A stretch of 62,456 nt of DNA, the filler included, from Actinomycetota bacterium (GTDB lineage Bacteria; Actinomycetota; CADDZG01; JAHWKV01; JAOPZY01), in assembly GCA_025963875.1 (NCBI GenBank). It is 9 parts of 9 records of this genome, joined end to end, with 100 filler letters (N's around TTAATTAATTAA, not from the genome) between each part and the next. Parts side by side here need not be neighbours in the genome. Positions count along the whole stretch, not along the records: positions 1 to 13,330 come from JAOPZY010000163.1; positions 13,431 to 29,315 come from JAOPZY010000004.1; 7 more parts are not named here. One strand, written 5' to 3'. Each line of letters begins with the position of its first letter. The first letter of the stretch is position 1. Positions 11,401 to 14,400 of the stretch are shown here, in pieces. The position numbers are program-made.

Positions 11401-14400
11401 ATCGGCGGGGTCCCGGTGCAGCCGCTGAATATGCTTCCCTAGCATTCCTCCGGGCCTGGGCCGTACGCTGGCGGGATGTCAAAGAAAAAGGGAGGGGCCA
11501 AGGCCAAGAGCAACGGGGCGGTCGCGACCAACCCCAAGGCCCGCCACGACTACGAGATCCTGGAGACGATGGAGGCCGGCATGGTCCTCACCGGCAGCGA
11601 GGTGAAGTCGCTGCGGGGCGGTTCCGCCTCGATGCGGGAGTCCTTCGCCATCATCCGGGACGGGGAGACCTGGCTGATCGGGATGCACATCGGCCCCTAC
11701 GCCCAGGCCGGGTACGCCGGCCACGAGCCCACCCGCACCCGCAAGCTGCTCCTCCACAAGGACGAGATCCAGCGCCTGGTGGGCAAGACGGCCGAGCGGG
11801 GCCTCACCCTCGTCCCGCTGAAGGTCTACTTCAACCACGGCCTCGCCAAGATCGAGCTCGGTCTCGCCAAGGGCAAGAAGACCTACGATCGGCGGGAGTC
11901 GCTCAAGGAGAAGGACGCCCAGATGCAGATCGACCGGGCGATGCGCCGGCGCCGGTAGCCCCCCTGCCGGCCCAAAAAAACGTTTGCTCAAACGTTTATA
12001 GAATAGCGTTATGCAGCCTTGGATGGCGCAGGCTACACGTCAGCATGGCGTCATCTCGGCGGCCGAACTCCGACGATTCGGACTCACGGAGAAGGCCATC
12101 AGATGGAGGGTTGAGACCGGGATCCTTCAACCGCTGTTCGTCGGTGTGTTCCTCGTCGGTGGCTCGCCCCGGACGTGGGAGCAGCGGATCACGGCAGCCG
12201 TCCGCTGGGGCGGGGACGGTGCCGTGGCTTCGTACAAATCGGCAGCGGCCCTTTGGAGGTTCGAAGGATTCGAGCCCGGCCCGCTGGAGATCTCGACCCT
12301 CAAACAGAACCGCCAGCGCCTCGGCTTCAAGGTGCACCGGACGCTGGTCGAGCCCGTGTTCATCACCACCAAAGCCGGCATTCCTGTCACCAGCCCCTCC
12401 CGCACGCTGCAGGACGTGGTGACCGTCGTCGACGAGCACCGTGGCAACCAGCTCTTCGACGAGCTGCTGCGCAAGGGCCTCGTCTCGATGGAGTCGCTCC
12501 AGCGCTACGTCGACCGGACCGAGTGCTCGGGCAACAAGGGTGTCGGGAAGCTACGGAGGATGGTGCGGCAGCGCAGCCCTGCCTACGAGCCGTCGGCCTC
12601 CGAGTTCCAGGCCCTGGTGCGACGGCTCCTGGCGGGGGCCGGCTTCGCATTCGTCGAGGAGTTTGTCGTCGTCGACAGCGACGGCACTTTCATCGGCCGG
12701 GCCGACTTCAAGTTGCTCGACGTCCCGGTGCTCGTCGAGGCGGAGGGCCGGGCCAACCACTCCTCGAAGGAGGACTTCGAGCACGACCTGAAACGGCGCA
12801 ACGGCTTCACGGCGGCGGGCTTCGCGACGGTCCACGTCACCTGGAACATGGCGCTGAACGATCCCGAGGTCTTCCTCGCCGAGGTGGAGCGGGCCCGGGA
12901 GAGTCAGCTCCGGCGGCGGGCGTAGGCAGCGGCGGTACACTGGACCTCTTGACAACTGAATAGCGGTTGCTTCAACCAGGGGGCGAAATGGTTTCGAGGC
13001 CAGTATCGTGTCTGGTGGAAGCGGGCCGAGGTCCAGGTACCTCGTAAAACTGTCTGGAAAACTAACTTAAACGTCGCTGCCTAAGCGACTTCCCACCTCT
13101 AGATAGGTGGGCGTTCCACCCGGGAGTGCCTGCGGCCCGGGATGGGGCGTCGTGCAGCAGGATTACTCCGAGGCTCTCTGTTCGACGGACCTCGGGGGAA
13201 ATGAAGTCGGACTGGGCACCAGCAAGCTAGTTCGCGGCAACTGCTGGGCCGAGACAAGAAAGCGGACTACGCCCGTAGATGCCCCAGGTGTGAGCTGTTG
13301 CCGACCCGGGTTCAACTCCCGGCGCCTCCANNNNNNNNNNNNNNNNNNNNNNNNNNNNNNNNNNNNNNNNNNNNTTAATTAATTAANNNNNNNNNNNNNN
13401 NNNNNNNNNNNNNNNNNNNNNNNNNNNNNNTCACGCCGTAGATCTGGCCCCGTTCCACGACCAGGCTCACACCGTCGACGGCGGTGATCGATGCTCCCCG
13501 CCGGCCCGCGAGCCGCGACGCAAAGCTCCCGGAGAGGTGGAAGGTCGTCCGGAGATCTTCGACCTGCAGGAAGCTCATGGCACCTCCCCGACGAAAGGGA
13601 CCGGTGTGGGTCGTGACGCCTCGGGCACGTGGAGCCAGCACGCTGCGGTGCCGTCCCCGACCGCGACGGTCGGGGGCTCGACGCTGCGGCAGACGTCCAT
13701 GACGTGAGGGCACCGCGGATGGAAACGGCATCCCGGCGGAGGCTCGGCGAGATCGGGGGGTGACCCCGGGATCGACGACAGGGCCTCGGTGTCGAGATGG
13801 ATGACCGACGCCACCAGACCCTGGGTGTACGGATGCGCAGGGGTGGCCAGCACCTGCTCGACGCCGCCGACCTCGACGACCTTGGCGGCGTACATGACGG
13901 CCACCCGGTCGCAGATCTCTGCGACCGCCCCGATGTTGTGGGTGATCAGCAGGACCGCGATCCCCTGGTCGTCGGCCAGGCTTCGCAGGATCTCGAGGAT
14001 CTGGGCCTGGACCAGCGTGTCGAGTGCGGTCGTGGGCTCGTCGGCGACGACCAGGCGGGGTCGCAGCACGATGGCCAGGCCGATCATGATCCGCTGGCGC
14101 ATCCCGCCCGAGAACTCGTGGGGCCACTGGCGCGCCCGCCGTGGCGGTATGCCGAGCGACGCCAGCGTCTCGTGGCACATCCTCCGGGCCTCCCCTCTGG
14201 ACACCTCGTGGCGGTGGGCCACGATCATCTCGACGAACTGGTCCTCGACCCGCATCAACGGGTCGAGCCGGCTCATCGGCTCCTGGAAGATCAGGGAGAC
14301 CTTCTCGCCCCGCAGCTCCCGGAGCTCCGAGGCCGGCATGCCGACGACCTGCGCGCCGGCAACGCGGAGCTCCCCCTCCTCCCCCGCCCCCTCGGGCAGC

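Follow-up and report, generated by a model that had tools for sequence, protein, structure and literature searches.

Among MITEs and the palindrome-associated elements of the IS200/IS605 type, short non-coding palindromic derivatives outnumber coding copies. In REPIN-RAYT systems, as presented in two reports (PMC3116915, PMC3337134), families of short intergenic hairpin palindromes go together with a cognate gene that has a copy adjacent to it, and they are amplified in a lineage-specific manner. AbiEi antitoxins of the AbiE type IV toxin-antitoxin (TA) systems are described as autoregulating through inverted repeats (PMC7319586, PMC3985639), Vsr is described as a repair enzyme (PMC3424549), and promoters of the PafBC (RecA-NDp) regulon of Actinobacteria (PMC8635444, PMC2897130) are reported to carry the motif tGTCgg(N10)tA(N3)T (PMC8635444).

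Here, we describe a gene that lies between smpB and ssrA and fuses an AbiEi-like module to a Vsr-like nuclease. By sequence comparison, the inserted DNA belongs to a very large family of apparently autonomous one-gene modules found in Actinomycetota. Each module consists of a palindrome of about 45 to 55 bp, a promoter positioned such that transcription is predicted to begin at the start codon, and an AbiEi-Vsr open reading frame (ORF). We propose that the product would be a selfish nuclease that binds and cuts cognate palindromes and spreads by break-induced copying, a reading to which we give about an even chance of being correct.

Results

A nuclease gene inserted between smpB and ssrA

The genome studied (G000) is a draft metagenome-assembled genome (MAG) of 273 contigs, 94.6% complete, with 2.5% estimated contamination. 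The window, i.e. the whole stretch of 62,456 nucleotides (filler included) that was analyzed, is a chain of draft contigs with N/TTAATTAATTAA linkers between them. The smpB-ssrA locus is found on contig C57 (window positions 1-13330), the end of which falls within ssrA, and all its oriented features are on the plus strand. The left flank, smpB (11476-11958), is an ORF of 160 amino acids with a TAG stop at 11956-11958 and shares 92% identity with G001:C302:4403-4885 of a congener. The insert begins with a GC-rich/A-run spacer (CCCCCCTGCCGGCCCAAAAAA; 11959-11977), which is missing at the empty site of G001 and is also present 5' of the palindrome in two truncated fragments (C8, C220). It is followed by the remnant of a palindrome of the approximately 47-bp subfamily type (AAACGTTT GCTC AAACGTTT; 11978-11997), the interior of which is deleted between 11986 and 11987, as revealed by alignment to fragments retaining GCGTTTGAGTAAATCCCGCCCCTATAGGGGCGGGATTTACTCAAACG; in a soil-run contig, 32 nt of palindrome interior sit between these two positions. 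A promoter-like TATAGAAT box (11997-12010) contains the -10 hexamer TAGAAT (11999-12004), with 6 nt between this hexamer and the ATG. An identical box and spacing were found at C263, C246, C270, C122, and in eight fragments, and a leaderless mRNA is predicted for the smpB-ssrA copy.

The gene itself (12011-12925) encodes 304 amino acids. Its 3' end (12905-12925; CTCCGGCGGCGGGCGTAG, encoding LRRRA before the stop) is an imperfect direct repeat, 15-18 nt long, of the smpB 3' end (CGCCGGCGCCGGTAG, encoding RRRR before the stop). This repeat may reflect junction microhomology or chance, the latter because an RRR(A/T) tail before the stop is typical of the nuclease family. The native smpB-ssrA spacer, with the promoter-like TTGACA of ssrA, follows at 12926-12978, where homology to the G001 spacer restarts. 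The right flank, ssrA (12979-13330), is cut by the contig end; it was recognized by Rfam RF00023 (135.8 bits, match span given to 13333), but ARAGORN reported no tmRNA. There is no ORF besides the nuclease gene in the smpB-ssrA interval, and no intron or intein context. The ORF and both flanks thus agree with the initial annotation, which had placed a gene between smpB and ssrA.

The same annotation had described the two flanking genes as close neighbors in 17 of 26 relatives and the insert as absent from all of them, and a recount in genomes G001-G026 (G003, G007, and G009 are unpublished) returned both figures. The gap is ≤132 bp in 17 genomes (G001, G003, G004, G005, G007, G008, G009, G010, G012, G013, G015, G016, G017, G020, G021, G023, and G025), 0.5-0.8 kb in five (G011, G018, G022, G024, and G026), two of which have unrelated small genes in it, and 6.3 kb in G006. 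Exceptions to the count are G014 (strands discordant), G019 (genes on separate contigs), and G002 (without a listed smpB/ssrA match). At the empty site of G001, ssrA begins 52 nt past the smpB stop.

Domains, fold, and conserved residues of the encoded protein

Pfam analysis of the 304-residue protein gave AbiEi_4 above its cut-off (27.2 vs. 25 bits), while DUF559 (13.5 vs. 20.6) and MTES_1575 (15.7 vs. 38.2) were both under theirs, as had been noted before; many homologs of the protein do have DUF559/MTES_1575 matches. PADLOC AbiEi models matched four paralogs over residues ~3-190 (E values from 1e-19 to 1e-31), the smpB-ssrA protein with an E value of 3.9e-23, and model coverage was, for example, 11-176 of 184. 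Foldseek searches with an AF2 model (pLDDT 91.8) retrieved AbiEi 6y8q_A (E value 1.1e-6, ~200 columns, TM 0.60 on target) and Rv2827c (1zel), as well as the catalytic domain of I-Bth0305I (3r3p_A, TM 0.81), 3hrl (TM 0.74), and 1vsr (TM 0.47; all on target). A family profile compared with PDB sequences matched 3hrl (6.2e-8) and 3r3p (3.4e-4). According to the model, residues ~1-190 are a complete AbiEi-like module, predicted to bind DNA, and residues ~200-304 have a Vsr/I-Bth0305I-like nuclease fold, the type that the initial annotation had suggested. In an alignment of 46 sequences, D135, H250, and D259 were invariant, and D232, E243, and R262 were conserved in at least 90%. The conserved nuclease residues (D ... 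E.DG..H ... D..R pattern) align to conserved positions of 3hrl and 3r3p and are probably the catalytic residues of a PD-(D/E)XK enzyme.

Size and turnover of the family

The fused AbiEi plus Vsr/DUF559 architecture was present in 15,505 cluster representatives (E ≤ 1e-30). A tblastn search of G000 with the 304-residue protein gave 24 HSPs, and 14 paralog queries yielded 27 family loci, of which ~17 have a full-length or almost full-length gene, with 27-59% identity to the 304-residue protein. Each locus stands alone within a tight housekeeping spacer of the 3.8-Mb genome. The family had been put at about 20 paralogs with 26-91% identity; its existence is not in doubt, but it is larger, and the full-length paralogs share 27-60% amino acid identity, the 84-87% values belonging to N-terminal fragments. 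Judged from these identities, the full-length paralogs are anciently diverged and are not recent intragenomic copies. The orthologous pair C238 and G001:C124 is under purifying selection (dN/dS 0.26). Several family loci in G000 are cut by contig ends, and since this genome is a draft MAG, near-identical copies may have been collapsed or lost at such ends.

The unit of gene, palindrome, and promoter is missing from G001 at the smpB-ssrA and C263 sites and, at two other sites, is found in G001 but not in G000; three of six gene loci compared are occupied in both genomes. At two sites, the congener has another family member or another palindrome in the corresponding slot. The C270/G001:C29 site has flanks that are 85-90% identical, and its gene and palindrome are of different lineage. 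C161 is a remnant in G000 and a full gene in G001, so some solo copies are scars. Slots with differing members would fit hot spots or allelic replacement, without nuclease action, as well as transposition. Comparison with a relative resolved three junctions, and none showed a target-site duplication; a fixed right end or a conserved insertion target was not found either: right ends vary by ~30 nt among copies, and two copies are 3'-truncated with the ORF continuing into flanking DNA. The earlier description of the family as a mobile element therefore stands as far as the unit is present or absent at orthologous sites and its derivatives have multiplied, but not as recent copying of full-length genes or insertion with a duplicated target or a fixed end. 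Counts of gene matches among relatives are patchy (0-30), with none in G003 (97% complete; unpublished) and in 11 of 20 f2 genomes vs. 12-30 in close kin.

Palindromes, solo copies, and truncated fragments

Most family copies have their own subfamily-specific, low-GC palindrome of ~45-55 bp. When genes were scored for a palindrome at their 5' end (self-reverse-complement score of at least 16, span ≤80, and GC fraction ≤0.58), 10 of 17 in the family had one vs. 15 of 497 sampled controls, more than expected by chance. This upholds the hairpin previously reported before most copies, with the reservation that the smpB-ssrA copy keeps a remnant with an internal deletion. At distant loci, an upstream inverted repeat of at least 12 pairs was found in 16 of 73, and two control windows gave 0 and 1. 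Between subfamilies, the palindromes diverge in sequence and keep their symmetry, and each has solo copies of its own (at least seven of the C122 type at 88-98% identity, eight of the C226 type, and eight of the smpB type). Palindromes that belong to one protein clade share outer-arm motifs; the motif is TTCTTTG...CAAAGAA for A/B and GGTTAGGTAA-like for D. The position of the palindrome relative to the promoter differs as well: in subfamily A it directly precedes the -10, in B it falls within the first ~15 codons, and in D it is at least 20 nt upstream of the -26. A single simple operator model therefore does not fit all.

Altogether, G000 has 176 palindrome sites with 15 families of at least two members; 128 sites are in families of at least three, and four of these 128 are genic. 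At most 13 of the 176 adjoin family loci and ~115 are solo sites, so that the 72 solo hairpins counted initially were too few. Twenty-two solo copies of family 2 and 29 of family 0 are trimmed to the palindrome. The latter, the largest family, has 29 sites (in the comparison with relatives, 20 in G000 vs. three in G001, two in G002, and none in 10 others); no family gene was found beside it in G000 or at the four G001/G002 sites examined, and it is devoid of the central TATA-like core of gene-linked palindromes. Families 0, 3, 5, 7, and 10 are orphans without a neighboring family gene in G000, yet the family-7 palindrome is located 5' of a full gene in G001. Palindromes are over-represented between convergent genes (32 observed vs. 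17-20 expected), and REPs are likewise enriched there. Different palindromes cluster in single spacers, the C14 spacer having four. One TnpB gene is truncated at a point occupied by a family-1 palindrome. A search for a Y1/RAYT transposase (PF01797) found none in G000 (94.6% complete), and the control search matched six of 14 reference genomes. Palindrome density, as roughly sampled, showed no clear relation to gene copy number (G017, 0 gene matches and ~7 palindromes per Mb; G005, 19 and ~27; G001, 19 and ~4-12).

Eight loci carry a truncated fragment composed of an smpB end, palindrome, promoter, and the 5' part of the gene, and in all of them the palindrome, the promoter, and codons 1-9 are retained. 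The number of fragments is as first reported; their length is not, as they keep 9-62 codons instead of ~70, and a foreign smpB 3' end is present in six of the eight. Left ends vary, including 0-75 nt of a non-resident smpB allele; right ends vary too, a single one being common to four of the eight. The junctions recur as loose ends in Logan contigs from independent soil runs. Recent multiplication is clear for the palindrome, together with flanks of variable extent, rather than for the gene.

Promoters of family genes

The T(A/T)TAGAAT box near the start codon, which had been attributed to most copies, is confined to subfamily A (five full copies and eight fragments), and the other subfamilies have a different promoter. 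In G000, a PafBC-type motif is found upstream of recA, whose promoter is matched by the extended form TTTTGTCGGTACC, and also, with the start codon 5-8 nt behind, at radA, a comM-like gene, three TnpB genes, and six of the ~17 full-length family copies (C95, C96, C120, C174, C226, and C238). A looser motif (A/T at the second position of the -10, start 5-9 nt behind) was present at 13 of 73 distant loci and six of 40 loci of relatives, and at none in all control windows. The smpB-ssrA copy has TATAGAAT without a GTC element 10 nt upstream, and its subfamily also has no GTC. Paralogs with a PafBC-type promoter would be candidates for DNA-damage inducibility.

Discussion

In the mechanism we propose, the AbiEi module would bind its cognate palindrome, and binding at its own gene would lead to autoregulation, as with AbiEi antitoxins at inverted repeats. 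The nuclease domain would nick or cut at or beside cognate palindromes, and the break would be repaired from another copy, either by synthesis-dependent copying or by end-joining with captured DNA. Such repair would duplicate the palindrome and a variable stretch of adjoining DNA, occasionally the whole gene, and might yield solo palindromes, palindrome-centered patches such as the eight fragments with smpB ends, and new or replaced intergenic gene copies. The variable hitch-hiking flanks of the copies point to break repair rather than cut-and-paste. Many paralogs could be tied through the PafBC-type promoter to the LexA-independent DNA-damage response, when recombinational repair runs; the smpB-ssrA copy would instead rely on a plain strong -10 box adjoining its palindrome. 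More tentatively, and as something we regard as possible rather than probable, the modules might be a new class of intragenomic replicator, similar to REPIN-RAYT but with an AbiEi-fused PD-(D/E)XK nuclease. Each lineage would own a ~50-bp palindrome and make breaks there, often under PafBC control, and repair would copy the palindrome, neighboring DNA, and sometimes the gene.

The same genes might alternatively be hypervariable AbiE-derived defence or addiction genes, in which an AbiEi-like regulator/antitoxin restrains the fused nuclease 'toxin', fixed slots are swapped by flank recombination, palindromes are operators, and solo copies are scars or decoys. The strong match of the N-terminal 190 residues to AbiEi models and to the AbiEi structure suits this idea, as do the autoregulation through inverted repeats described for AbiEi antitoxins (PMC7319586, PMC3985639), the C270/G001:C29 site, where the gene lineage differs between well-conserved flanks as at variable immunity loci, the C161 remnant opposite a full G001 gene, and the patchy copy number. 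We nevertheless consider it unlikely: 27 single loci of one family in tight housekeeping spacers are unusual for defence genes, and no AbiEii partner exceeds the cut-off anywhere in G000. Furthermore, scars should be ragged, yet the solo copies of families 2 and 0 are trimmed to the palindrome, family 0 reached 20 copies in one lineage without a gene beside it, and decay in place cannot yield an smpB-type fragment copied to eight loci. The palindromes might also be independent REP- or MITE-like repeats, moved by another factor or by hairpin replication slippage, to which the genes are merely often adjacent (for example, through permissive hot spots or promoter or terminator supply). The orphan families, the several palindromes per spacer, the REP-like enrichment between convergent genes, and the palindrome at the TnpB truncation point speak for such repeats. 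We judge them distinctly improbable, however, as an explanation of a genome in which each gene subfamily is marked at the same end by a palindrome type of its own, with arm motifs shared within clades, the linkage (10/17 vs. 15/497) extends to distant genomes, a family-7 palindrome orphaned in G000 is followed by a full gene in G001, and no Y1 transposase was found.

Host benefit offers another explanation, with the genes having expanded as sequence-specific, Vsr-like nucleases for repair or processing within the PafBC regulon, and not being selfish at all. Vsr itself is described as a repair enzyme (PMC3424549), the family genes are under purifying selection, and recA, radA, and the comM-like gene share the PafBC-type promoter with six of the ~17 full-length copies of G000 and with 13 of 73 distant copies. 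Three TnpB transposon genes, however, use the same promoter type, so the promoter alone is not indicative of host function, and the smpB-ssrA copy is without it. Extreme patchiness between close kin, and copies gained and lost between congeners, make this explanation very unlikely in our opinion. It is extremely improbable that the fragments, chimeric junctions, and paralogs are largely an artefact of metagenome assembly or binning, even though the MAG has 273 contigs with 2.5% estimated contamination and several family loci are end-cut: the copies differ by 5-70% in sequence and therefore are not collapsed repeats, the fragment junctions recur in contigs of independent soil runs, and relatives and long-contig MAGs show an identical architecture.

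Should the selfish-nuclease reading be true, a huge family labelled 'DUF559 / AbiEi family antitoxin domain protein / very-short-patch-repair endonuclease' would be self-propagating nucleases with cis-acting palindromes. Its more than 15,000 sequence clusters would place it among the largest uncharacterized families of selfish nucleases and make it a major origin of intergenic repeats in soil bacteria of high GC content. This would account for the low-GC intergenic hairpin repeats of high-GC genomes, explain why the assembly of soil Actinomycetota drafts is interrupted at palindromes, and provide a second, mechanistically unrelated gene-plus-repeat partnership of the REPIN-RAYT type. Each paralog would also be a DNA-binding nuclease with a ~50-bp recognition site, useful for sequence-specific DNA tools. 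Through the PafBC-type promoters, the LexA-independent DNA-damage response of Actinobacteria would be connected with selfish nucleases, TnpB among them. Even if the genes serve defence or addiction, a single-chain AbiE-derived gene would be a new Abi/TA architecture.

Comparison with known systems

With Vsr-like (EDxHD) homing endonucleases (I-Bth0305I, 3r3p) and DUF559 proteins (3hrl), the family shares the fold of the catalytic domain and the conserved acidic and His residues, and its genes are likewise present or absent at otherwise conserved sites. Unlike homing endonuclease genes, they are free-standing and intergenic, without an intron or intein, and the DNA-binding part is an AbiEi module; since the same slots hold other members or palindromes in relatives, no single cognate empty-site target emerges. 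We know of no palindromic repeat families that accompany homing endonucleases. The family resembles MITEs and IS200/IS605 elements in having more short, non-coding palindromic derivatives than coding copies, and in the multiplication of one truncated derivative. It differs from them in that, apart from the palindrome itself, terminal inverted repeats were not found, nor were target-site duplications or a transposase.

Whole-length AbiEi profiles and structures (S. agalactiae 6y8q; M. tuberculosis Rv2827c, 1zel) match residues ~1-190, and the inverted repeat at the promoter may be comparable to the abiE operators as described (PMC7319586). The family differs from AbiE in its C-terminal nuclease, its dozens of copies per genome, and its dispersed solo palindromes. 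No AbiEii (DUF1814) partner was found at any family locus, the single PF08843 match in G000 (21.1 bits, under the cut-off of 22.5) being on a contig without a family locus. The tGTCgg-N10-tAnnnT element of six G000 paralogs and many distant members is that of PafBC regulon promoters as reported (PMC8635444), from which the smpB-ssrA copy and its subfamily depart by having no GTC element. With REPIN-RAYT systems, as portrayed in PMC3116915 and PMC3337134, the family has in common short intergenic hairpin palindromes, a cognate gene with an adjacent copy, and lineage-specific amplification. It departs from that portrayal in several respects: the encoded enzyme combines a PD-(D/E)XK nuclease and a winged helix and is not a Y1 HUH transposase, only one side of the gene has a palindrome, many gene/palindrome pairs coexist per genome, and the genes turn over. 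Set against these systems, the family seems to represent a type of selfish nuclease-plus-repeat system that has not been described before.

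A nuclease-like gene inserted between smpB and ssrA

The genome (G000; 3.84 Mb in 273 contigs, 69% GC) carries the locus on contig C57, which forms window positions 1-13330. There, smpB (11476-11958) is followed by a 304-aa open reading frame (ORF; 12011-12925) and by ssrA, which starts at 12979, is truncated by the end of the contig and was detected by an Rfam match, although ARAGORN called no tmRNA at this place. The sequence 5' of the ORF comprises, in order, a spacer rich in GC/A, what remains of a palindrome (20 nt; 11978-11997; AAACGTTT GCTC AAACGTTT), a TATAGAAT box (11997-12004) and, 6 nt downstream, the ATG, a spacing that is predicted to be the layout of a leaderless mRNA. 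Since the window is composed of nine concatenated contigs separated by linkers (N/TTAATTAATTAA; 13331-13430, 29316-29415 and six more), features spanning a linker do not form one continuous piece of the genome. Of the eight contigs starting inside the window, six match another contig, either 127 nt in from its end (n = 5) or 120 nt from it (n = 1), and these end matches look as de Bruijn-graph overlaps would.

In the congener G001, ssrA lies 52 nt after the smpB stop codon, without the insert. The close spacing of the two genes in other genomes, reported in the initial annotation, was confirmed: the gap was at most 132 bp in 17 of 26 genomes (G001-G026; the 17 include the unpublished G003, G007 and G009), 0.5 to 0.8 kb in five and 6.3 kb in one, with two of the larger gaps being occupied by unrelated small genes. 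Outside these counts were G014 (discordant strands), G019 (genes on separate contigs) and G002 (no listed smpB/ssrA match). No more than a few bases separate the right edge of the insert from the insert's stop codon, and its final codons (LRRRA*) resemble the smpB end (RRRR*), creating an imperfect 15-18-nt direct repeat. Since the family typically ends with RRR[AT]*, the resemblance may be microhomology or chance, and we did not accept this repeat as a target-site duplication.

Contigs covering the entire gene plus smpB and ssrA were found in three soil metagenome runs (Logan), while none of the Logan contigs listed joined smpB directly to ssrA. Relative to the flanks, summed contig depth over 11985-12115 was 5-20x higher in three soil runs, and in run X6 that of the gene body was about half of the flank depth, but such depths sum all organisms in a run rather than giving copy numbers and are at most a hint. 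Contigs from RNA runs covered smpB, ssrA and one 35-nt piece within the gene (run X15), which does not amount to evidence of its expression.

The protein joins an AbiEi-like module to a Vsr-like domain

Of the Pfam models, AbiEi_4 alone scored above its cut-off with the window protein. PADLOC AbiEi models matched its residues ~7-174 (E 4e-23) as well as three paralogues (E 1e-19 to 1e-31), and four paralogues matched no NCBIfam model. In an AlphaFold2 model derived from a 46-sequence alignment (pLDDT 91.8), the first ~200 residues align structurally with the entire AbiEi antitoxin 6y8q (E 1e-6) and with Rv2827c, and the last ~100 with the catalytic domain of the homing endonuclease I-Bth0305I (TM 0.81), with a DUF559 protein and with Vsr. 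Comparison of the family profile with the PDB retrieved 3hrl (6e-8) and 3r3p (3e-4). Across the 46 aligned sequences, H250 and D259 do not vary, while D232, E243 and R262 come close to invariance. A prediction of a two-copy complex scored 0.27 (mark 0.42) and bears neither for nor against dimerisation. No AbiEii toxin gene adjoins any family copy, and none scored above the cut-off anywhere in G000, so the protein is no AbiE antitoxin as usually understood.

The fusion of the two modules is very common: at E ≤ 1e-30, clustering at 50% identity leaves 15,505 representatives. Used as the query against species-representative genomes, the subfamily-A alignment (the clade of the window copy) finds 470 stretches that code for relatives, whereas the same search with the window protein alone returned no relative. 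The best 80 of the 470 come mostly from Acidimicrobiia, Solirubrobacterales and unclassified Actinomycetota metagenome-assembled genomes (MAGs). The first ~90 residues of the window protein have a 94% identical counterpart in a metagenomic ORF of 221 aa (P0057), which then continues into cytochrome c domains (PF13442, PF00034); in this ORF, an N-terminal piece of the element seems to have been joined in frame to the gene next to it.

A multi-copy family with rapid turnover between congeners

That the gene belongs to a multi-copy family was borne out by tblastn with 14 paralogue queries, which revealed 27 loci in G000. About 17 of them are full length or nearly so and are 27-59% identical to the window protein; the remainder are fragments or are cut at contig ends. 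A profile search gave 30 matches in G000. Among relatives from its taxonomic family, four had 19, 16, 12 and 19 matches and a fifth, the unpublished G003, had none; the neighbouring taxonomic family had 0-4 and another order of the class 1-13.

Six G000 gene loci were compared with G001. Two are empty there, namely smpB-ssrA and the locus on C263, whose place in G001 is taken by a different solo palindrome (one without an adjacent family gene). Two are orthologous (C272 and C238), and for the pair C238 / G001:C124 the gene is 82.5% and the flanks 89% identical, with a dN/dS of 0.26. At C270, well-conserved flanks enclose a gene and a palindrome that are clearly of another lineage in G001, and at C96 both flanking G001 contigs end at the gene. 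The reverse case was also encountered: full genes of G001 correspond in G000 to a solo palindrome from another family (C189) or to a palindrome with a 52-aa C-terminal remnant (C161). The copies on C263 and G001:C29 lack their last ~10 codons, and their reading frames continue into flanking DNA; right ends are therefore not fixed.

Palindromes accompany the genes and also occur alone

By inspection, most copies bear at their 5' end a near-perfect, low-GC palindrome of 45-55 nt. Based on self-reverse-complement alignment (score ≥16, span ≤80, GC ≤0.58), a palindrome was present at 10 of 17 family genes versus 15 of 497 sampled genes; a stricter hairpin finder (loop ≤16, ≤2 mismatches), which overlooks many imperfect family hairpins, gave 4/17 versus 28/596. 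At distant loci, an upstream inverted repeat of at least 12 pairs was found in 16 of 73, compared with 0 and 1 in two control windows. The palindrome sequence varies by subfamily with its two-fold symmetry kept, and members of a given protein clade have outer-arm motifs in common. In another order of the class (L066-L079, L091 and L095, from G033, G040, G037 and G034), a short GC-rich TGTGGCGCGCGCCACA-type palindrome ~40-60 nt before the start stands in place of the long low-GC hairpin.

A census of G000 yielded 95 long inverted repeats with GC ≤0.55, six of them inside crude gene calls, and BLAST clustering gave 176 palindrome sites, 15 families having at least two members and at most 13 of the sites adjoining family loci. 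Solo copies extend no further than the palindrome itself. Families of at least three members account for 128 sites, of which four are genic and 32 lie in convergent spacers, against 17-20 expected. No Y1/RAYT transposase was found in G000.

Family 0 consists of orphan palindromes (29 sites by BLAST, 20 by exact pattern) of the form AG(A/T)TTCCGTCAAAAAG-N13-CTTTTTGACGGAA(A/T)CT, e.g. C14:36240-36290 and C161:28295-28344, whose asymmetric 13-nt centre is found in both orientations. No gene is adjacent to them in G000 or at the four G001/G002 sites examined. As the exact pattern occurs 20 times in G000, three and two times in the congeners and not at all in ten further relatives, family 0 was amplified in the G000 lineage. 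One spacer (C14:50450-50900; L155 ~16950-17400) holds four hairpins, i.e. a family-0 copy, a family-5-like one and a tandem GGAGCACAGCGCGCGTATGTGCGCGAAAGG pair; the family-0 copy is orthologous and decayed in G001, where it stands alone, the three others have accumulated in the G000 spacer, and the arrangement resembles a BIME-like cluster. Rough densities in sampled stretches were ~7 palindromes/Mb in G017, ~27 in G005, 4-12 in G001 and ~30 in G000, figures too noisy to set against gene copy number. In G005, a relative from another genus, a solo palindrome (C59:389971-390017) sits ~70 nt beyond the ssrA match as seen from smpB, and is of the type preceding one of G005's own family genes (C59:296864). 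Elements of this kind are thus drawn to the surroundings of smpB-ssrA in more than a single lineage.

Dispersed fragments of the smpB-type element

Eight loci (on C124, C48, C208, C273, C214, C220, C16 and C8) hold an intact version of the window copy's palindrome, followed in seven by the TATAGAAT box, which is degraded in C273. The initial annotation described such fragments as joined to the first ~70 codons of the gene; the junction is present in seven of the eight, with a length of 9-62 codons instead, and the C273 fragment stops just past the palindrome. The 3' end of a non-resident smpB, also reported there, was recovered on six of the eight as 12-75 nt of an allele ending in AMKRRR*. 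No source of this allele was found among seven relatives with parseable smpB ends, which read RRRR* or GRRR*. The left ends of the fragments fall into shared classes, one right end is common to four fragments, and two of these four also carry internal deletions; it follows that a fragment which was truncated beforehand must have undergone repeated copying. With the palindrome at their centre, the tracts vary in extent on both sides and look like repair or conversion tracts rather than products of precise transposition. Their junctions reappear as loose contig ends in three independent soil metagenome runs.

Promoters of the family and of damage-response genes

In subfamily A, including the window copy, T(A/T)TAGAAT stands directly 3' of the palindrome, and the start codon follows 6-7 nt later. 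Subfamilies B and D instead use TTTTGTCGGTACC-N-(c/t)AnnnT, again with the start codon 6-7 nt downstream, and these elements match the published PafBC motif, tGTCgg(N10)tA(N3)T (PMC8635444; for background on RecA-NDp, see PMC2897130). The extended B/D-type motif is also located upstream of the G000 recA. Thirty leaderless-type matches were followed by an ORF of at least 80 codons, among them radA, a comM-like gene, three TnpB genes and six family copies. When the motif was relaxed to admit A or T as the second base of the -10 box and a start codon 5-9 nt downstream, it turned up at 13 of the 73 distant loci, at 6 of 40 loci in relatives and in none of the control windows. These promoter findings thus lead us to predict that a large part of the family would be damage-inducible and that the window copy would not.

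G000 possesses a tandem pair of WYL-domain genes (C215:6185-7346; 88 and 78 bits), presumably the gene order expected of pafB-pafC. Its recA (C8:314-2179, minus strand) is a 733-aa open frame in which the RecA profile is interrupted by ~1 kb between model positions 198 and 193, a size and position expected for an intein; TTTTGTCGGTACCTCTCGCTAAGCT stands upstream of the frame. The three TnpB genes (OrfB_IS605 plus Cas12f1-like TNB domains; C26:8736-10142, C117:687-2243 and C240:1498-2904, all outside the window) are 87-90% identical and have a conserved left end in common. They share the PafBC-type promoter with recA, radA and the nuclease paralogues, and their start is leaderless-type. A family-1 palindrome marks the exact point, aa 455, where the C117 gene is cut short. 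TnpB elements were rejected as the origin of the palindromes, since they have their own ends, without a repeat-family palindrome there.

Discussion

The palindrome, the leaderless promoter and the AbiEi-Vsr ORF form a real, compact and widespread unit, whose distribution is selfish-looking, with palindromes that multiply by themselves. In the most economical mechanism, to which we give about an even chance, the AbiEi module would bind its cognate palindrome, the Vsr-like domain would break DNA at the bound site, and repair would copy tracts centred on it. Several points weigh against this mechanism: target duplications and defined ends are lacking, the largest palindrome family has no cognate gene, palindrome and promoter do not keep a constant relative position, the full-length paralogues are old, and G000 is a draft MAG.

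An orphan family of this kind would be at home in an independent REP-like repeat population merely co-localised with the genes, a reading against which stand the 10 of 17 family genes that bear a palindrome and one we regard as rather improbable. The genes could also be AbiE-derived, hypervariable defence or addiction genes, with the palindromes as their operators and scars; the different lineage at C270 favours this account and the lack of AbiEii partners speaks against it, and we consider it unlikely, though deserving some weight. Host damage-response nucleases, suggested by the PafBC-type promoters of subfamilies B and D and set against the different promoter of the window copy, make a distinctly improbable explanation. 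Our preference stays with palindrome binding, breakage and copying by repair.

In the literature searched, we found no paper with DUF559 and AbiEi together, none on this family among the listed titles of papers that mention DUF559, and nothing on it in work on Vsr-like, AbiEi or COG2852 proteins; supplementary tables of papers on the PafBC regulon might list such genes. Among described systems, AbiEi regulators, Vsr-like homing endonucleases and REPIN-RAYT pairs come nearest. The present system has parts in common with all three but does not show the full set of defining features of any.
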